This document shows positions 7,625 to 31,077 of a stretch of DNA of 64,000 nt, piece by piece (position 1 is the first letter of the stretch; each line of letters opens with the position of its first letter). The notes beneath the pieces are model-generated. The model had not been told where the DNA came from and did not search any database. It was given only the letters and a program-made list of their open reading frames with translations. Source of the DNA: a plasmid. A program made the position numbers and the translations under genes. The stretch is taken from the sequence record CP104424.1. One strand, 5' to 3'.

Positions 7625-8180
7625 GACACCTTCGGCTCCCGGCTGCCTGGCGGCATCCGGTCGTCAGGCCCGACTCCGACAGGCAGCTGCTGGCGCACCC
7701 GCCAGTCTCCGCCGAACCCGCTGGCGCGGTTTCGGGCTGCCGCTACGGTCCGATGTCTGAAAAACCAGGCTTGCAGCGACCGTTCCGGTCGCGCCGCCTC
7801 TGTCGCGCCGTGACCTGCGCTCCCTGCACACCTGACGGTGTGTAAGGAAACTGCGCCTGATGGCGCAGTTGTCTGCCCTTCCGCCGCCCCCCCTGCGGCC
7901 TGTTTCCCCGCTGTGGACTTTCCGGGGGCTGAAGCGGCCACAACACGTTTCAGCCGTCCAGGGGAGAGATGTACCAGCCACAAAACTTTTTGCCGCAAGC
8001 GTCAAAAACTTTTGCGTCTGCCCCCGGACAACTGCCCCGTGCCGTGGCTGTCGCTGCCCCATCGGAAAGGTCCACTGCGGGGAGAAACCCCGAAGAAGTG
8101 GACGGCAGAAGGGGCTTTCGCCCCTCCGGGGGAGCAACCGGTCGGCCCGGCGACCTGATTCAGCAGAAGGAGACGTTTTC
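7625..8180 (+). promoter_or_regulatory. Frpo/ssi-type repeat, copy 2 (upstream of orf144)
   Basis: About 90% identical over >240 nt to 1280-1530 (ggctcccggctgcct...gcgcctgatggcgcag); ends at the RBS of the 8181 ORF. Confidence 0.6.
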
Positions 8181-22915: not shown

Positions 22916-23596
22916 ATGAATTCCAGTACGCTGATATCCGTGATGATACGGCAACAGATATCCGGTGACGGTATGCAGGAACATATTGATTATCAGATTG
23001 AGAAATATCAGTTCAGGGCCAGGAATGAGTCACCGCGACTGATGCGCCAGTGGGAAGATGTCATGCGTGAATGCCATGATACCGGAGCAGGAGCCAGGGA
23101 GCGGCTGCGGATTGCCTTACTTAATGTTGATTATGTGACCAGTTTTGAACTGCCGTTTCGTCTGCTGTTAACCCGGACACCGCAGATGATTGACAGCGTG
23201 CGGCGGGAATGGCAGCTCAGCCAGAAAAAAGTCGTATTCAATGAGCGGCAGCGGGGATGTGTATACAGTCTGCAGAATGACTTATCCGGCGTGCCGGATA
23301 GCTTCAGTTACAGTCTTGCGACGCGAATACGGCGGGCGGACAGCTATGGCATGACGACGCGTTGTTTCACTGATATAGCCGGGCAGGTTAAAGCCCCGAC
23401 AGCACGGCTGAAACTGGCGCTGGAAAGCGGGTTAATTGTCACCGCGCTGGATGGTCTGTTCTGGCTTGGTATTCAACGTATTGCCGCAGATGTGCAGCGG
23501 CTGCGTCAGTCCGGAATGACAATCATCACCCGGGATGTTGAGGTCTCAGACTCGCTGACCGGAACCACACGGGTTGTTTCCGGGTACAGCCTTTGA
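22916..23596 (+). CDS. hypothetical protein (226 aa; alternative start 22973)
   Basis: Divergent from nuc; no recognisable motif. Confidence 0.45.
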   Translation: MNSSTLISVMIRQQISGDGMQEHIDYQIEKYQFRARNESPRLMRQWEDVMRECHDTGAGARERLRIALLNVDYVTSFELPFRLLLTRTPQMIDSVRREWQLSQKKVVFNERQRGCVYSLQNDLSGVPDSFSYSLATRIRRADSYGMTTRCFTDIAGQVKAPTARLKLALESGLIVTALDGLFWLGIQRIAADVQRLRQSGMTIITRDVEVSDSLTGTTRVVSGYSL

Positions 23597-23797
23597 TTTA
23601 TGCAACAAAGTATCGCAGCGTCGAATATGAGCTATGGCCAGATTTTTGTTAATCGTGGTTGTTGCAACATGTAAGGCGAATGACCACACTATTCTGGCAC
23701 GCTCGTAATCATGCTGAAATTCTGCTTCCTGTCCTGCCGTGATGAGTTCCGACCAGGACATACGGCGAAGTGTATGTCTGTCAGTAATATCCGTCAT
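23546..23797 (-). CDS. small putative regulatory protein (83 aa; PerC/ANR-like guess)
   Basis: Compact minus-strand operon of small ORFs; family call is weak. Confidence 0.35.
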   Translation of the reverse strand: MTDITDRHTLRRMSWSELITAGQEAEFQHDYERARIVWSFALHVATTTINKNLAIAHIRRCDTLLHKSKAVPGNNPCGSGQRV

Positions 23798-24009
23798 GAG
23801 CTCTCAGCCTCCTCCTTCGTATTTCCGTCAGAAACACAAACGCCCCGCAGAGAAAATTCGCCAACATTCTCCTTTTTAATGGCGCGCAATGCATCGCGGC
23901 AGGCCCGTTCGGTATGAAAGGCCTGGCTGTGCACCGCCAGTGTGGGCTGACGGGCATCACCGGAAGAGACATTAAAGGGCGATGAAAGCCAGAAAATCAG
24001 TAGCCACAT
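23794..24009 (-). CDS. small hypothetical protein (71 aa) with hydrophobic N-terminus
   Basis: MWLLIFWLSSPFNVSSG... ; overlaps neighbouring ORFs by 4 nt. Confidence 0.4.
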   Translation of the reverse strand: MWLLIFWLSSPFNVSSGDARQPTLAVHSQAFHTERACRDALRAIKKENVGEFSLRGVCVSDGNTKEEAESS

Positions 24010-24012
24010 GCG

Positions 24013-24396
24013 TCACACCTCGTCCTTTTTATGCGGGTATCTGGACAGAATATTGAGCGCCTGTAATGGCGCTTCATGCATTTCACGGATACAACGGGCA
24101 TCGGTGATATTTTCCCGGTAATGTGTGGTTTCCAGCATCATATGATGCATATGGAGCATCCGGGCCAGGGCTGCGCGGAGTTCTTCAATATGTTGTTCAT
24201 GGGAATGCTGGCGGGGCTGTATCCGGCAGAGAGGGATAACCTCCACATCATCCGGGTGCGCGCGAAGCCACGCGTCAGTGACTGCAATGTCGTCAGTGTA
24301 AAACCATGTGCCGGATGTCCCGTTGGCCAGAAAACGCATTTTCCAGGTTTCTGGGGTGGCGGTTGTGTTGTTATCTTTCATGGTGCTACCACTCAT
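24013..24396 (-). CDS. hypothetical protein (127 aa; likely start at MKDNN, 24381)
   Basis: Histidine-rich segment MLHMHHMMLETTHY; same operon. Confidence 0.45.
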   Translation of the reverse strand: MSGSTMKDNNTTATPETWKMRFLANGTSGTWFYTDDIAVTDAWLRAHPDDVEVIPLCRIQPRQHSHEQHIEELRAALARMLHMHHMMLETTHYRENITDARCIREMHEAPLQALNILSRYPHKKDEV

Positions 24397-24671
24397 TCAA
24401 CAGGCTTAATGCTGTCCAGGCGCAGTCTGCTCAGACTGTCGTGGCTGCCACAGCGGCGTCCAGTGCTTTTGCTGTAGCACTCCTGCCCCCTGATACACCA
24501 TGCCGTTGGCGTTTCGTAGAGGCTGACACGTCGGGTTTTATCTTTAATGATGAGAAGCCCGGTGTGAGTTTTTGTCTTTTTCATCGGTGGGGTACAAACG
24601 CAGAAATTTTGTTGTCATCAGTTTTTGCCTGCAGAGGCCTGAAAAGACAGCGTTTTCAGGCCCTGTTCAGG

Positions 24672-24914
24672 TTAGTGAATATTCTTGCCTGGCTTTTCGG
24701 CAATATCAATCCCCTGAAGTTGCATGGATATCCCATGCCCATTGAGCATCTGGCTGTCCATGGAATGGATACCGCATGTCATCATCAGGTTGTAACAAAG
24801 CGTACTCAGCATGGTGAGCGCCTCTTCTGAGGATTTACAATGTGTATTCATAAGGGCCAGAAACTGCTCAACAACATCCGGGTTAATGCTGGTACTGTGT
24901 ATTTCATCCTTCAT
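24672..24914 (-). CDS. hypothetical protein (80 aa)
   Basis: RBS aagga then ATG (complement of 24912-24914); first gene of the small-ORF operon. Confidence 0.45.
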   Translation of the reverse strand: MKDEIHSTSINPDVVEQFLALMNTHCKSSEEALTMLSTLCYNLMMTCGIHSMDSQMLNGHGISMQLQGIDIAEKPGKNIH

Positions 24915-25095
24915 GATGTGTCCTTGTTTTTTATTATTTTGCATTTCAGAAAATAACACGATGCCTGCAGCCCGGAAAACAGATGTGTGCACACGTAGTC
25001 ACTTTCCGGCTTTATTTCTGTCCCTGACACAAAATACGTGGTGGCATGAAAAGGATTGTGGCGGACAGGAAAACGATTAGAATAGCGGCGGGCGC

Positions 25096-25389
25096 TTGAG
25101 GCTGTATGCCGAAAGCGTTTTGTGGACGGCATGTAGCAGAAAGCCCCAGGCGATTTTTTTATCAATCAACCCAGGGCCCACTGTAATGCCTCAACAACAT
25201 TATAGTAGCCCGATGACGGCCGAAAGGCAATGGAGGGGCTGCGATGCCACAACGAACGTTTTTAATGATGTTAATCGTCGTCTGTGTGACGATACTGTGT
25301 TTTGTCTGGATGGTGAGGGATTCGCTTTGCGGATTTCGTATCGAGCAGGGAAATACGGTGCTTGTGGCAACGTTAGCCTACGAAGTTAA
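25096..25389 (+). CDS. pndC: PndC (mok-like overlapping reading frame of the hok-family module)
   Basis: Overlaps pndA in another frame, as in hok/mok. Confidence 0.45.
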   Translation: MRLYAESVLWTACSRKPQAIFLSINPGPTVMPQQHYSSPMTAERQWRGCDATTNVFNDVNRRLCDDTVFCLDGEGFALRISYRAGKYGACGNVSLRS

Positions 25390-25396
25390 ACGTTAA
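25244..25396 (+). CDS. pndA: PndA, Hok/Gef-family membrane toxin (50 aa)
   Basis: MPQRTFLMMLIVVCVTILCFVWMVRDSLCGFRIEQGNTVLVATLAYEVKR. Confidence 0.9.
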   Translation: MPQRTFLMMLIVVCVTILCFVWMVRDSLCGFRIEQGNTVLVATLAYEVKR

Positions 25397-25402
25397 CGGG
25401 CA

Positions 25403-25432
25403 ACACGGCGGCAGGACATCTGCCGCCGGATT
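25403..25432 (+). terminator. pnd mRNA 3-prime hairpin
   Basis: cggcggcaggacatctgccgccgg. Confidence 0.55.
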
Positions 25433-25533
25433 GTTGCGAAGGCTGACCTCAATGCGCCTTGTTTGTCTTTTTTACCGGACGACTGCTGGTTGCTGCTGTC
25501 CGGCAGCTATTATTTTTTCCGTCCTGTGCGTCA

Positions 25534-27080
25534 TCAATTATGACAGTCGCTCTCATTTGGTTGTCTCTGGTTAGATGTATTATTAGATATTTTCGGGGTA
25601 ATTCGATAAAAGTTATCCACTTCAGCACCAGACTGAATGATATATGCAATAAGATCTAAACGATGAATCTCGTATCGTGTACGTAACTCCATCATTTCAC
25701 GCCATGCTAAAATCCTTGATGTTTTCAGTTCAGCCTCTATAAGTTTCCATGTGTTTGTTGAGATGGCATGTTCTTCCAGCTGACGTAACGAGAACCTATC
25801 ACTAATGACCAACCATCCCCATCCTCGAGTATGTGCCCATTTGCGACCTGCATTACTTTTTATTCTCGTGAGACTCAAGGTCATTCGGTCTGTTGGCTTC
25901 ACTTCCATAAGTAGGCACCGACCATCAACTGTCGCAATGAGTAAATCTGGATAGTATTTTTTTGATTTGTTTTTAAAACAATATGGAATAGAAAATGGTT
26001 GTTCTTGATAGAAAAGAACCTGATCGCAACATTCTAATAGATTCATTATTTTAAACTCAAGCCCTGATTCGTACTGGACTGTACGACCTAATTTTTGAGA
26101 GTAAAAGAATCCAGATATGTCAGTATCATTAACCGCTCTCTGTGAACATAGCTGTTCTACGGGGGGAGGAGGTGCGATATATTTTGGCCAATGTGTATTG
26201 TCTAGCCATTTACTGAATATGAACTCAACTCTTTCTTTCTTGATTCGGGCTCTTTCCTGAGCGTGAGCGTGTGCTAATTCTGCTCTTCGTTCACGTAACT
26301 TCTGCTTTTGTAATTGTGATATTAATGAGAGCGAATTTTTTATTTCATCTCGTCTTGCTTTAGGAATGCCTGCGGCAAAAATGATGAATTTGGCGGCTAA
26401 CTCAGAGGATGTAACGAAATCCCGATGAACAATACGATAAATCCATACTGCTATATCATATGGTGAATTACCTATTGAGTTAATAAGGGCTTTAAGGCAA
26501 GCTCCAGGTGTCCCTTCATAGCGAGATTTAGCAGCTAGTAAGCCAAGGGCTCGTTCCTGAAGTTGTCTTACCCTTTCACGGGAAATTCCTAATTTGACGG
26601 CAATATCTGCCAGAGAATGAGGTGAATCATCTGTGCCGAGTCGCATTAGAAGAATATATTGATGTCGTTTATTAGATAAACTTTCGATAGCAGAATGAAT
26701 TAGCATAATGACATCATGTTCATCGGCTATATAATCTTTAAAATCTGTATTGGGTTGGCAGAGGGGGAGTGGGGTATTTTGTTTAAAACTATTCTTTTGT
26801 ATTTCAACTTTATCATGAGCAATTGTTTTTGCAGTGCTCAATGATATTAAATTATTGATGATACTATTGTGTTCTTGGCGAGGAATCTTGTTGAAGTAAT
26901 TGCTGAGATCATTCACCGTGTTTATATCGTTGAACTCAAGAAACTCAGAAGGAAGCAGGCGTTTGATTGCTCCACGTATTCCCCCGGACGATCGTTGATG
27001 TGTTTGAGTAAGTTTTTTTAGCGAGACGCCCTCCGCTATGGATACGAGAAGACGCTGTAACTCTTCAGTATTCCATGGAG
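25534..27080 (-). pseudogene. IS1-disrupted gene: sigma-70-region-4-like HTH plus TnsA-like PD-(D/E)xK nuclease domain (C-terminal ~513 codons)
   Basis: HTH motif LADIAVKLGISRERVRQLQERALGLL (~26526-26690); nuclease core ...SGLEFKIMNLLECC...FYQEQPFSIPY...KKYYPDLLIATVDGRCLLMEVKP...RGWGWLVISD (~25785-26073) resembles the TnsA endonuclease N-terminal fold; AT-rich relative to backbone; reading frame continues into the IS1 end. Confidence 0.6.
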
Positions 27081-27135
27081 GGTAATGCTGCCAACTTACT
27101 GATTTAGTGTATGATGGTGATTTTAAGGTGCTTGC

Positions 27136-27411
27136 GTGGCTTCCATTTCCATCAGATGTCCTTCCTGCTCCGCTACTGAAGGCGTGGTGCGTAACGGCAA
27201 AAGCACTGCCGGACATCAGCGCTATCTCTGCTCTCATTGCCGTAAAACATGGCAACTACAGTTCACTTACACCGCCTCTCAGCCCGGTACGCACCAGAAA
27301 ATCATTGATATGGCCATGAATGGCGTCGGATGTCGCGCCAGTGCACGCATTATGGGCGTTGGCCTCAACACGGTTTTACGTCACTTAAAAAACTCAGGCC
27401 GCAGTCGGTAA
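27136..27411 (+). CDS. insA: IS1 InsA
   Basis: [43 protein letters not shown]... Confidence 0.95.
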
Positions 27412-27833
27412 CCTCGCGCATACAACCGGGCAGTGATGTGATTGTCTGCGCTGAAATGGACGAACAGTGGGGCTACGTCGGTGCTAAATCACGTCAGCGC
27501 TGGCTGTTTTACGCGTATGACAGGATACGGAGGACGGTTGTGGCGCACGTCTTCGGTGAACGCACTCTGGCCACACTGGAGCGTCTTCTGAGCCTGCTGT
27601 CGGCCTTTGAGGTCGTGGTATGGATGACGGATGGCTGGCCGCTGTATGAATCACGCCTGAAGGGAAAGCTGCACGTTATCAGCAAGCGTTACACTCAGCG
27701 CATTGAGCGACATAATCTGAATCTGAGACAACATCTGGCAAGGCTGGGACGGAAGTCACTGTCGTTCTCAAAATCGGTGGAGCTGCATGACAAGGTCATC
27801 GGGCATTATCTGAACATAAAACACTATCAGTAA
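27330..27833 (+). CDS. insB: IS1 InsB (expressed as InsAB' by -1 frameshift)
   Basis: 167-aa frame with IS1 transposase DDE region. Confidence 0.9.
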
Positions 27834-27849
27834 GTTGGAGTCATTACCT

Positions 27850-27897
27850 CCATGGAGTACCATGTCGTGCTGGAAAATTGCTGCGGGATTCAGACAT
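27850..27897 (-). pseudogene. N-terminal 16 codons (MSESRSNFPARHGTPW) of the IS1-split HTH-nuclease gene
   Basis: Joining complement(27858..27897) to complement(..27071) across the IS1+TSD restores a continuous frame ...RHGTPWNTEELQRLL...; AT-rich promoter-like DNA upstream. Confidence 0.5.
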
Positions 27898-28099
27898 GAT
27901 TTTATCTTTATGTTTTCTAGGTACTGCCTTGAGTGTGTGGATATGATAATTATTTATAATGATATTGTTATCTTTTATAGATAACTGATATGCAGAATTG
28001 TATTGATTTTGTCTACAGTGGGCAAGACAGTGCTAAGAATTTGTGGGGAAAACATAGAGACTCCATGCGGCGTCCTGAGATAGACGGCAGACAGGCATT

Positions 28100-28136
28100 C
28101 TGCCTGAAAAGAAAAAGCCGGTTCAGAGAAAACCGG
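28100..28136 (-). terminator. terminator downstream of excA
   Basis: Minus strand gccggttttctctgaaccggc followed by tttttctttt. Confidence 0.55.
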
Positions 28137-28170
28137 CTGACGGATTATCGTCTAACAGTTGATAGCTACC

Positions 28171-28824
28171 TCAAAATACTTCTGCAACAGGAACACCGGC
28201 AACTTTTTCCCACTCTTTAACCCGATACCGGATCATCTGTGGGAAACGTTCCTTGTACTCATATCCACGTGCAGCCATGGTGTGCATGGTGTTGGCCAGC
28301 GTCCTTGATGAGATGCCGGAGATCTCAAGAGGAATCATCGGCAGACTCACATAGGTGGTGTGGATTTCCAGCTTGCCGTCCTCAGCAACCGTGCGGGTAA
28401 AGTTGTGAATATCCAGACCAATTACATCCATCACATTGTTTGGATAAATACGCACATACAGCATGGTGCCGTTTTTAATGTCGATCCCGAAATAACAACT
28501 CTTCGAGAATGACAGTTGCTCATAATCGCTGGTCGGCGCAAAGGGACTGCTTTCTTTTATCTGCTGAACAACCTGCTGGACTTTCTTTTTCTTCGCTCTG
28601 GTTTTCATATATAGCCAGAGTGATGGGAGTATTAATAGGAGCCAACTGCCATAAGTATATAGATATGCTTGAATATCTGTTTCTATATATGGTTCTGTAA
28701 GCATCATACCGGTAAATCCTAGAGAACATAGTAATAAAAAAGGAACACCAAATATAAAATAAGCAGTGCGGATAAGGTAATAATATGCCCACCAGGAAGG
28801 ATATCTGCTTTTTGTTGTGTTCAT
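28171..28824 (-). CDS. excA: entry exclusion inner-membrane protein ExcA-like (217 aa)
   Basis: Position just after traY as in R64; N-terminal TM helices; size (R64 ExcA ~220 aa). Confidence 0.6.
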   Translation of the reverse strand: MNTTKSRYPSWWAYYYLIRTAYFIFGVPFLLLCSLGFTGMMLTEPYIETDIQAYLYTYGSWLLLILPSLWLYMKTRAKKKKVQQVVQQIKESSPFAPTSDYEQLSFSKSCYFGIDIKNGTMLYVRIYPNNVMDVIGLDIHNFTRTVAEDGKLEIHTTYVSLPMIPLEISGISSRTLANTMHTMAARGYEYKERFPQMIRYRVKEWEKVAGVPVAEVF

Positions 28825-28911
28825 AATAAACCTCCATATTCACCTGAATGTATTTTAATCTCTTCAGGTGAATATGGCAATGGTGTTTTAGTGGTTTTTC
28901 GATATTTTCAT

Positions 28912-31077
28912 TTATTGTTTTATTCCGTCTTTATCATCTCTATTAATATTTTTCAGTTTTTCTTCACGAACGCCAGGTGTTCTGCGCATATTGGTATTAC
29001 CTCCGGCAATAATATCTTTGACTGAAGAAACCATATTCCCCAGCATATTAACACCGTCACGTCCGCCCAGAAAATTAATTACATGGTCAGGCAGATAAGC
29101 CTGAAGCGCAAAAACGGCTGCAACCAGTGTGGTACAGGCGCGGGCATAAATCATCAAAAATCCCGCCATGCTGAACACGCCCGTCACAGAGTTTATCTGG
29201 ACATTCATCAGTGCAGCAGCATACAGCGCATTCAGGATTGTGCCGCCGGCCACGATGGCGACTGATGCAAAAAAGAACCCGAACACCATCAGCAGCGGTC
29301 TGATCATGCTGTCTATCAGGTAGATGTAACCGTAAGCGGCCCGGCTTCCCCGGTCCTGACTTGTTCCCAGATGGGTGGCGGCCCACAGGGGGCCAGCAGC
29401 ACATCCAATCAGTACGCTGACTATCCAGTTGCCGATGCCGGTCATCCAGAAGATAAACGGGATAAACGGCAGGTAAATGGATAACGAAAAACCGGCACAA
29501 AACAGCAAAAACAGCAGGAAGTAGAGTGGTGGTGCGGATGCTTCCAGAAAAGCCTTTGCGGCGTCAGATAATCCGCTGACGGCATTGACCAGTCGACCAA
29601 AAACGGAGTTGCTGCCGGCCGTGGAAAGTACCCTGACGGTGGTATAACCCGCCCAGATGGTTTCGGTCGTAACCATGGTGTAATCGCCAATGTTTTTCAT
29701 TTTTATCAACGGATTTAGTTGATTAGTTGTGGTACCTGTACCGCTCAGATAAGTGGCTGTCCAGTTAGTCATTCTTGTTAGGTTAAACCCAATCAATTTT
29801 AAGATTGCTGATTGAGGGTCTTGAGTTTTAGATGCGTGGTATTCACTGGCAGAGGTGGCTGTTCCCAGTGCAGGAGTATACGCTGAGTTCTGTAGCTGTG
29901 CCTGGTAAGCCCCCTTGACTTCCTTCAGGAATTCCGTATCCCCGGCTTCGCCCAGTGACGAGACGCCACTCACAGTAGGAGCGCGGTTGGCCAGGTCTTC
30001 CAGTCGCTGGTTGGCGGTGGCAAAGGTCTGGTACCAGGCACCCAGGGCAACCCAGCCGTAGGTGGTCAGGTAGGATTTCAGCTGCTCCCTGCGCTCAGTT
30101 TCTGCGTTATCTGCCGGCAACGCCTTCTGCACCGTTTCTTCATACCGGTTGGCTGCCTTCTGAATACGGCTTTCAATATCCGGCAGGTTGCCGTTACCCG
30201 TGTCGCGCCGGGTCCGGTATGCCGACACAAATTCCTGCGCCGCGCTGTCCAGGTCACGGAGCATGGTATCCATGGCGGAGCGTTGTGCCGTCAGAACCCC
30301 CTGATATTCCGTTTCAATGAAGGGATTGAAAAAATGGGCCAGCGCGGACTGCTTGTTACTGCCGTTTCCTTTCACGGAGAGACTCACACTCCCGCAGGTG
30401 GCGCTGCCATTTGAGACGGTGACGGTATATCTGCCATTCTCTGTCCGTGAGGATTCGCTCATGGGCGGCGTTGATGAACGTGCGGTACGGTTAAAGTCAT
30501 CGAGGCCCGTATTCATGGCGTGTTTGCACAGTTCCATCTCCAGAATTCCCCGTGCTGCCGTGCGGGTGGAGACATGTACTGGCTGTACGGTCATTGAATA
30601 GCCTTCAGCAATGTTTTCTGCCGCTGTCTGAACCATGATATTGGCGGAACCGATGCCCATGATGGATGCGCCCCACAGCATGACCAGTTGCGCCAGACTC
30701 CAGCCGGAAGCGGTGGGCACAATCATCAAAAATCCACTCACGACACTGAGTATGCCGACGACGTCCCGTCCGTTGTTAAAGACACTGCCCTGGTGTCCCG
30801 TGCGGACAGCATGACGGATACCAATAAACAGAAACCAGACTATCCCCATCGTGGCGATAATTGCGTTAAACACCATGAACAGGTTGCCAATGATGGTGTT
30901 GCTGCTGGCTGTCAGGGGATTTGTGACCACATCACCAAAAATGGTGACCAGTGCCTGGCGCGACAGGTCATCCGGATTGGTGGCGGCACTCACAATGTCC
31001 TGATAGGTGACGAAAGCCTGTGCAGGTACGGCAGCCAGCGCCAGACCTGCACTCAGTGCTCTGGGTATGATTTTCAC
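28912..31077 (-). CDS. traY: TraY, DotA-like integral membrane protein (721 aa)
   Basis: Signal peptide; multiple TM blocks; operon position. Confidence 0.9.
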   Translation of the reverse strand: MKIIPRALSAGLALAAVPAQAFVTYQDIVSAATNPDDLSRQALVTIFGDVVTNPLTASSNTIIGNLFMVFNAIIATMGIVWFLFIGIRHAVRTGHQGSVFNNGRDVVGILSVVSGFLMIVPTASGWSLAQLVMLWGASIMGIGSANIMVQTAAENIAEGYSMTVQPVHVSTRTAARGILEMELCKHAMNTGLDDFNRTARSSTPPMSESSRTENGRYTVTVSNGSATCGSVSLSVKGNGSNKQSALAHFFNPFIETEYQGVLTAQRSAMDTMLRDLDSAAQEFVSAYRTRRDTGNGNLPDIESRIQKAANRYEETVQKALPADNAETERREQLKSYLTTYGWVALGAWYQTFATANQRLEDLANRAPTVSGVSSLGEAGDTEFLKEVKGAYQAQLQNSAYTPALGTATSASEYHASKTQDPQSAILKLIGFNLTRMTNWTATYLSGTGTTTNQLNPLIKMKNIGDYTMVTTETIWAGYTTVRVLSTAGSNSVFGRLVNAVSGLSDAAKAFLEASAPPLYFLLFLLFCAGFSLSIYLPFIPFIFWMTGIGNWIVSVLIGCAAGPLWAATHLGTSQDRGSRAAYGYIYLIDSMIRPLLMVFGFFFASVAIVAGGTILNALYAAALMNVQINSVTGVFSMAGFLMIYARACTTLVAAVFALQAYLPDHVINFLGGRDGVNMLGNMVSSVKDIIAGGNTNMRRTPGVREEKLKNINRDDKDGIKQ

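Follow-up and report, generated by a model that had tools for sequence, protein, structure and literature searches.

The 64,000-nucleotide stretch of plasmid DNA analysed here (sequence record CP104424.1; hereafter, the window) carries an AT-rich cargo island (25459..28166) that extends from a pnd locus of the hok/sok type to excA and contains a minus-strand gene split by an IS1 element. The limits of the island are set by comparison with plasmid R64 (NC_005014), whose backbone homology, as determined by blastn, ends at 25458 and restarts at 28167, that is, within about 25 bp of the limits proposed in an initial annotation of this DNA (25433-28140). The base composition ascribed there to the block is equally apparent, with a GC content of 0.397 when IS1 is left out, to be compared with 0.536 for the whole window and with 0.50 and 0.54 for the two 5-kb flanks. 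IS1 apart, positions 23000-31000 are 100.0% identical to the IncK plasmid pCT (NC_014477 / FN868832), a worldwide extended-spectrum beta-lactamase plasmid, from which it follows that the window belongs to a pCT-like plasmid, and the interrupted gene is its pCT_066 (WP_000004564.1). Removal of IS1 and of one copy of its target-site duplication restores a continuous minus-strand open reading frame (ORF) from the ATG at 27897-27895 to the stop codon at 25534-25536. The uninterrupted frame had been foreseen correctly, the encoded protein being 528 aa long rather than about 529 aa. Judging from its sequence, pCT_066 is a stand-alone fusion of a sigma-70 region-4-like helix-turn-helix (HTH) with a TnsA-type PD-(D/E)xK nuclease; it is not a sigma factor, nor is it a subunit of a transposase.

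This architecture, already proposed in the initial annotation, is borne out by sequence, profile and predicted structure. In particular, two domains of the protein pass the curated cut-offs of Pfam, namely Sigma70_r4 and Tn7_TnsA-like_N. In a confident AlphaFold2 model built on 39 homologues (mean predicted local distance difference test, pLDDT, 88.6) the chain starts with an N-terminal three-helix domain (~aa 18-55) and two more helices, passes through a disordered linker at aa 102-122 into the sigma region-4 helices at aa 134-198, and continues as a helical bundle at aa 205-249; the C-terminal half consists of a 54-residue helix with a proline-rich turn after it, the nuclease core with its mixed beta-sheet (aa 337-439) and a helical C-terminal domain (aa 445-497). 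The stretch previously described as coiled-coil-like corresponds to this single predicted helix (aa 254-307; 26200..26361, minus strand; local pLDDT ~96-97), which in the model could possibly act as a dimerisation or spacer element.

The region-4-like HTH (aa 134-198; 26527..26721, minus strand) matches Sigma70_r4 (PF04545) at aa 150-193 with an E-value of 4.4e-9 (36.2 bits vs a cut-off of 24.1), and the closest match of the module in the PDB by profile search is region 4 of primary (group 1) sigma factors, at E ~1e-15. In sigma70, the −35 hexamer is contacted by R554, R562, L573, T583, R584, E585, R586, R588, Q589 and K593. An alignment whose sigma70 reference was checked against the rpoD gene of a gammaproteobacterial locus (L094) places R152, R160, L170, S180, R181, E182, R183, R185, Q186 and R190 of pCT_066 at these positions, the recognition helix S180-R-E-R-V-R-Q186 being equivalent to sigma70 T583-Q589, with SRERVRQ in the place of TRERIRQ. 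Nine of the contact positions are invariant or kept in at least 34 of 39 family members, and R181 is an arginine in 31 of the 39; together they form the best-conserved stretch of the domain, and outside them identity to sigma70 is only about 40%. Moreover, enterobacterial members of the family show no greater closeness to enterobacterial sigma70 than to an actinobacterial sigma factor (HrdB). Since the contact positions are kept with no extra closeness to the sigma factor of the host, the comparison favours retained −35-type DNA binding more than close mimicry of the host sigma. In addition, G178 sits at the position of sigma70 D581, and the D581G substitution in sigma70 results in stronger binding to the beta-flap. 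The kinship with primary sigma factors (sigma70/SigA) is confined to region 4, as pCT_066 shows no match to regions 1.1, 2 and 3 and has a nuclease fused on: neither Sigma70_r2 nor Sigma70_r3 is matched in Pfam at E <= 1, and NCBIfam sigma models align through their C-terminal parts only, far below their cut-offs. Because regions 2 and 3 have no match, pCT_066 cannot act as a sigma factor.

The nuclease half is defined by Pfam, profile comparison and predicted structure. Its PD-(D/E)xK core (~aa 332-440; 25801..26127, minus strand) matches Tn7_TnsA-like_N (PF08722) at aa 366-440 (E 5.3e-12, 46.6 bits vs a cut-off of 26.5), and a profile of the C-terminal half reaches the TnsA of a CRISPR-associated transposon (CAST) at E 3.5e-9, with the motif pairs YESGLE/CESSLE, YYPD/YTPD and EVKP/EYKP in pCT_066 and CAST TnsA, respectively. 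Candidate catalytic residues, all encoded on the minus strand, are E351 (26068-26070), D392 (25945-25947), E406 (25903-25905) and K408 (25897-25899); none of the 39 members compared, with identities down to 23%, departs from E351, E406 or K408, and at least 90% of them have D392. The C-terminal helical domain (~aa 445-510; 25591..25788, minus strand), with a conserved LTAYIIQSGA..D..YRI, is equivalent to the second domain of TnsA by Foldseek, and the complete two-domain fold is recovered in Foldseek alignments of 217-234 columns against TnsA chains of 260-264 residues. From its sequence the nuclease is conserved and apparently active. Catalytic core and two-domain fold are therefore common to pCT_066 and to TnsA, the endonuclease of the heteromeric transposases of Tn7 and CAST (PDB 1f1z, 1t0f and 9bw1; PseTnsA). 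On the other hand, pCT_066 lacks a TnsB or TnsC partner and transposon ends, has about 330 extra N-terminal residues including the sigma-4 HTH, and is found as a lone gene in islands, on plasmids and in a prophage record; against the NCBIfam model TnsA_like_Actin it scores 46.8, the cut-off being 110.

The family to which pCT_066 belongs is large and widespread. A word-indexed search returned 66 relatives with both Pfam domains from Enterobacterales, Xanthomonadales, Streptomyces/Kitasatospora and myxobacteria, and an exhaustive profile search at E <= 1e-30 returned 463 clusters at 50% identity. Many of these clusters comprise proteins of ~370-400 aa without the N-terminal domain, and because of these short members the conserved core of the family is, by sequence, sigma-4, helical linker and TnsA-type nuclease. 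In the Streptomyces/Kitasatospora members, sigma-4 is preceded by an additional conserved insert of ~80 residues (alignment columns 215-295), and three of these members end in the tail AGGWTR.QLA.WGV.WP.P.GW (alignment columns 805-854).

The gene was found to stand alone in all contexts examined. Four of nine genomic contexts, given here as raw counts, have a strong known defence neighbour: Gabija, a Lamassu-like gene and Borvo adjoin the homologue, and a BREX system lies ~3 kb away. Specifically, in Pectobacterium GajA (9e-269) and GajB (2e-230) are encoded directly upstream of the homologue, three unknown genes and an McrB-like gene lie downstream, and AlpA opens the island; in a Providencia plasmid Borvo BovA (2e-128) is directly upstream; in Xanthomonas, where the insertion is beside trpG, an LmuB-like gene (1.6e-31) adjoins the homologue and SIR2_2 is found three genes further; and in Salmonella the BREX genes are brxA-B-C-pglX. 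Among the other contexts, the homologue of Mangrovibacter resides in an integrase island by smpB/ssrA with a weakly PD-T7-4-like neighbour, that of a Mycobacterium abscessus prophage record is near three integrase genes, and that of the gammaproteobacterium represented by L094 (1454-9596) lies ~4.7 kb downstream of the housekeeping rpoD, from which it is separated by an unknown gene, a HipA-like kinase gene and 2.3 kb without a called gene. Viral and metagenome contigs were scanned with an alignment of the nuclease only; 15 metagenome loci, with three ORFs on each side of the homologue, provided 71 neighbours, among which strong PADLOC matches were to type I restriction-modification, LmuB (1.5e-92), MADS mad2/mad5 and Old, and Pfam detected two integrases. 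TnsB and TnsC are absent within 6 kb in pCT, within ~8 kb in nine other contexts, and among the Pfam or PADLOC matches listed for the 71 metagenome neighbours. Taken with the lack of terminal repeats at the island edges, this agrees with the earlier statement that the locus is not a Tn7-like transposon.

As a separate observation, the three Pectobacterium genes between the homologue and the McrB-like gene (L002 10150-15274) are co-directional and encode 734, 643 and 327 aa; they have no strong PADLOC match and a weak ZorA/ZorF-like similarity, and by sequence they may represent another uncharacterised system in the island.

pCT_066 is a gene long noted. It was annotated as a putative sigma factor and used as a polymerase chain reaction (PCR) marker for pCT-like plasmids (PMC3377399), and it was later swapped for an aph cassette by Cottell et al. 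in 2014 (PMC4083329). As reported in the passages on this knockout, plasmid stability, conjugation to Escherichia coli or Salmonella, growth and biofilm formation were unchanged, the competitive index was 1.00, and phages were not among the assays listed (PMC4083329). A nuclease domain goes unmentioned in the passages of both papers that deal with pCT_066 (PMC3377399, PMC4083329). A knockout without phenotype fits a conditional function and equally fits a dispensable gene.

Taken together, these features give a probability of about 0.55 that the family is one of single-gene, DNA-targeting immunity or exclusion nucleases, a candidate role already put forward, with caution, in the initial annotation. 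The reading is based on the conserved nuclease, the DNA-reading head, the variable N-terminus, the lone-gene mobility and the low GC, as well as on carriage by plasmids, integrative islands and a prophage record and on the frequent presence of known defence neighbours. In other words, the family behaves as single-gene mobile cargo, often in defence islands, with low GC and a variable insertion site as signs of its mobility. The mechanism that we infer, in its DNA specificity, dimerisation, cleavage and defence role alike, would be the following. The sigma-4 head would bind −35-like DNA, because every −35-contact residue of the housekeeping sigma is kept; the long helix would position, and probably pair, the nuclease domains; and the site formed by E351, D392 and E406-x-K408 would cut DNA, so that the invading genome is destroyed or the infected cell is killed. 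Some activation step must exist, because a −35-reading head alone cannot discriminate self from non-self.

Precedents in defence exist, by analogy, for both modules, in PD-lambda-3 and in MzaA. In PD-lambda-3 a TnsA-type nuclease domain is used in anti-phage defence (PMC13190303), though pCT_066 matches no PADLOC PD-Lambda-3 model at E <= 1. MzaA, of the sigma-70 family and by its NCBIfam name part of the MZA anti-phage system, has a region-4 HTH inside a defence protein, as does pCT_066, aa 104-202 of which align to the C-terminal part of the NCBIfam MzaA model NF041931 at E 1.7e-6; nevertheless, pCT_066 is a lone gene and reaches 27.1 bits against an equivalog cut-off of 800. The same nuclease superfamily also serves for foreign-DNA cleavage in restriction enzymes with a TnsA-like module (the BPTD_3080 family; type III Res, EcoP1I), with a match of pCT_066 to NF046055 at 2.5e-4; differently from these, pCT_066 has no helicase or methyltransferase partner, and its target-recognition module is the sigma-4 HTH. 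As no convincing match to any PADLOC model is found, it would be a new variant of a nuclease-based single-gene defence candidate, outside the named systems. A further and unlikely elaboration is that of an immunity nuclease with a head borrowed from the housekeeping sigma, whereby immunity is coupled to the transcription machinery and not to DNA modification or guide RNAs. Invaders would then be found via clustered strong consensus −35 elements or via docking on RNA polymerase or, alternatively, the binding of a phage anti-sigma protein to the sigma-4 mimic would be the trigger.

Several observations weigh against a role in defence or exclusion. The literature searched contains no experiment that connects a member of the family with restriction of phages or plasmids, and PADLOC v2 models at E <= 1 yield a single weak match, to SspB (4e-4). 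The −35-reading head offers no obvious means of self/non-self discrimination, and the gene is not accompanied by a methyltransferase or immunity gene. A strong known defence neighbour is missing from five of the nine contexts, those of Buttiauxella and Streptomyces containing ordinary genes only, and most neighbours at the metagenome loci are likewise ordinary or housekeeping genes. In IMG/VR only two relatives were found, the family being rare in viral contigs. Finally, given the competitive index of the knockout, the gene is not measurably costly under the conditions reported (PMC4083329), and insertion sequences may have hit it neutrally or by a preference for AT-rich targets and not through counter-selection.

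A first alternative is regulation of transcription. The protein could be a sigma-like factor, a sigma competitor or a promoter-binding repressor that binds −35 elements or the beta-flap of RNA polymerase and alters plasmid or host expression, the nuclease fold serving as a scaffold or ligand sensor. The closeness of the module to group-1 region 4, with its DNA-contact residues kept, and the glycine at the D581 position that would strengthen the beta-flap contact speak for it, as does the first annotation as a putative sigma factor (PMC3377399). Nonetheless, the absence of Pfam region 2 and 3 matches leaves no promoter-melting holoenzyme, the retention of the full E/D/ExK set in phylogenetically very distant members speaks for an active nuclease, and none of the plasmid and host traits reported for the knockout was altered (PMC4083329), so that a regulatory function appears improbable.

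Chances are similarly slim for a decoy sensor, in which sigma-4 would mimic host sigma70, be bound by phage proteins like T4 AsiA or G1 gp67 and thereby free the nuclease for abortive infection. The closest solved relatives of the module do include a sigma region 4 in complex with a phage protein (4g6d), the variable N-terminal region on a conserved core is reminiscent of sensor-effector defence proteins, and PD-lambda-3, with its TnsA-like component, is abortive. Yet the idea is weakened by the sequence comparison with host sigma factors: the sigma-4 domain has only ~40% identity to primary sigma, the sigma of its own host is no closer to it than a foreign one, and its most conserved positions are those contacting DNA, for which a decoy of proteins alone would have no use.

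The possibility of a selfish or mobility nuclease, either a homing-type endonuclease by which its own gene is spread or a stranded remnant of a TnsA transposon, with no benefit to the carrier, is also small. It is suggested by the TnsA-type domain itself, by single-gene insertions at unrelated loci such as those of Buttiauxella and Streptomyces, by the low GC and by the viral structural matches, which include PD-(D/E)xK and NUMOD-type homing nucleases and which in phage proteins concern the nuclease fold alone. Against it, inverted or direct repeats are lacking at the island ends, TnsB/TnsC are seen in no context examined, homing predicts a conserved insertion site while the sites differ, and architecture and catalytic residues are kept across Proteobacteria, Actinobacteria and myxobacteria in 463 clusters, unlike in a decaying remnant. 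Lastly, a plasmid-competition or entry-exclusion helper that complements ExcA by cutting the highly transcribed leading-region DNA of an incoming rival plasmid would account for a gene directly by excA in more than 270 conjugative IncK/IncI-type plasmids and for the homologue on the Providencia plasmid, but is hard to credit when most homologues reside on chromosomes, without linkage to exclusion genes, and when the pCT knockout, in assays that covered the donor side of conjugation, showed no change as reported (PMC4083329).

Whichever function the gene has, its IS1 allele is a disrupted one. The element (27081..27848, plus strand) has all the features by which IS1 is defined, being 768 bp long with 23-bp imperfect inverted repeats at its ends, insA (27136-27411) and insB (27330-27833) frames and a 9-bp duplication, TCCATGGAG, whose left and right copies occupy 27072..27080 and 27849..27857; the IS1 part of a junction query matches annotated IS1 transposase genes. 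The complete element and its perfect duplication are thus as initially annotated. So is the insertion after codon 16: the right-hand piece of pCT_066 (27849..27897, minus strand, right duplication included) reads from the ATG through codon 16 and ends with the first base of codon 17 (MSESRSNFPARHGTPW), and the left-hand piece (25534..27080, minus strand, left duplication included), delimited by the ORF list, translation and 100% identity to NC_014477, runs from within codon 14 to codon 528 and the stop. As had also been recorded, the frame of the latter stays open into the IS1 end, for 58 codons, in an ORF of 573 aa (25534-27255). The target lies inside a 16-bp near-palindrome, GTATTCCATGGAGTAC (27068-27080 joined to 27858-27860; 7669-7684 in the IS-free copy L001).

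A recent origin of the insertion had been suggested, and the data fit an event both recent and private, because the duplication is perfect, the flanks are those of pCT and the exact junction is absent from PLSDB (72,556 plasmids) and from 5,426 complete E. coli genomes. IS-free copies are indeed present in plasmid databases: the restored DNA is uninterrupted at 100% identity in many IncK/IncI-type plasmids, and at least 80% of it is covered in one place in 275 of 460 matching PLSDB records. IS1 comes between the gene body on one side and the promoter with the first 16 codons on the other, which precludes synthesis of the full-length protein from this allele. A promoter-like site, by consensus match only, spans the junction and faces the truncated gene (27067..27094, minus strand), its −35-like hexamer TTGGCA coming from the IS1 end and its extended −10, TG-AATACT, from the gene, with a 16-nt spacer; it could re-promote the gene, as the initial annotation had envisaged beside silencing, but at most for an N-terminally truncated product.

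Such a product would be altered in the N-terminal three-helix domain, most of which (~aa 17-57; 26950..27072, minus strand) is defined by two family alignments, with the motifs PARHGxPW...HQRTxGGI...RL, and by predicted helices at 18-29, 34-41 and 45-55. IS1 removes the first residues of this domain and severs the conserved PARHGxPW motif at its end. The domain is missing in many shorter family members, and the existence of these natural forms shows that it is dispensable for the core. Profile searches found no significant relative of it in Pfam or the PDB. A Myb/SANT-like fold was considered and gave nothing significant (Myb in 1 of 13 members, E 0.12), and the match to a C2H2 zinc-finger linker (HQRTHTG) looks like a chance resemblance.

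pCT_066 has been hit repeatedly in other plasmids as well. An IS2 lies in the same gene 27 bp from the IS1 site, near codon 23, in CP088378.1 (L090 3150-4490), CP097477.1 and NZ_ON556675.1, and is an independent hit on the 5′ end. The E. coli protein P0222 (563 aa, same 90% cluster) has 39 foreign residues leading straight into codon 5, which suggests, at sequence level, a third independent insertion at this end, and truncated forms are frequent in Shigella sonnei. In the IncK2/Z plasmid CP088503.1 (L165 1136-5168) an ISEcp1-blaCTX-M-14-IS903B unit is in place and the last 56 codons are left: the blaCTX-M-14 unit landed in the nuclease gene and deleted most of it. Overall, a near-full-length copy (>=80%) is found in 269 of 313 PLSDB records with a protein match and is lacking in ~14%. 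Repeated disruption may reflect counter-selection, neutrality or a preference for AT-rich targets. A further candidate, the IS1A of CP025855-type plasmids as a promoter insertion, was discarded, as the alignment puts IS1A in excA and leaves the gene and its upstream region intact. In four IncK2/Z plasmids this IS1A in excA (NZ_CP025855.1, L101 ~3146 onward) marks a rearrangement by which the region is joined to an IncFII repA; NZ_CP025855.1 is typed as non-mobilizable in PLSDB, and its nuclease gene is intact.

As regards the remainder of the island, the native 5′ intergenic and promoter region of pCT_066 (27898..28115, minus strand), from which IS1 now separates the gene body, contains minus-strand promoter-like sites at 28025-27997 and 27971-27943, which are consensus matches only; in the pCT locus, the promoter predicted in front of the native ATG scores no better than chance. 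The right edge is marked by an intrinsic-terminator-like hairpin of excA (28116..28138, minus strand). Neither inverted nor direct repeats bound the island in the IS-free pCT locus. On the left, directly beside the island, the pnd locus encodes a 50-aa Hok/Gef-type toxin (25244-25396, plus strand) and the sok antitoxin RNA (Rfam RF01794, 124.7 bits; 25090-25246, plus strand); the latter is the sole match of an Rfam scan, which offers no RNA partner for pCT_066. According to annotation, the same site holds different small genes in R64 and pESBL, namely a DinQ-like toxin gene, hha or a HEAT-repeat gene, and hypotheticals.

Plasmids of the pCT-like IncK/IncI type carry blaCTX-M-14 worldwide, and pCT_066 is among their PCR markers. 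In the literature searched, no paper citing WP_000004564 and no characterisation of a fusion between a sigma-region-4 head and a TnsA-type nuclease were found; nor was a functional study of the family, in what was covered of it, recent defence-discovery papers including DefensePredictor being part of this. With at least 463 clusters at 50% identity, the family is a large one that is open to a simple one-gene assay. If pCT_066 is a defence or exclusion nuclease, another resistance plasmid would be found to carry immunity that influences the range of phages and plasmids accepted by its host and, if this holds true, TnsA-type nucleases would have a life outside Tn7-like transposition.

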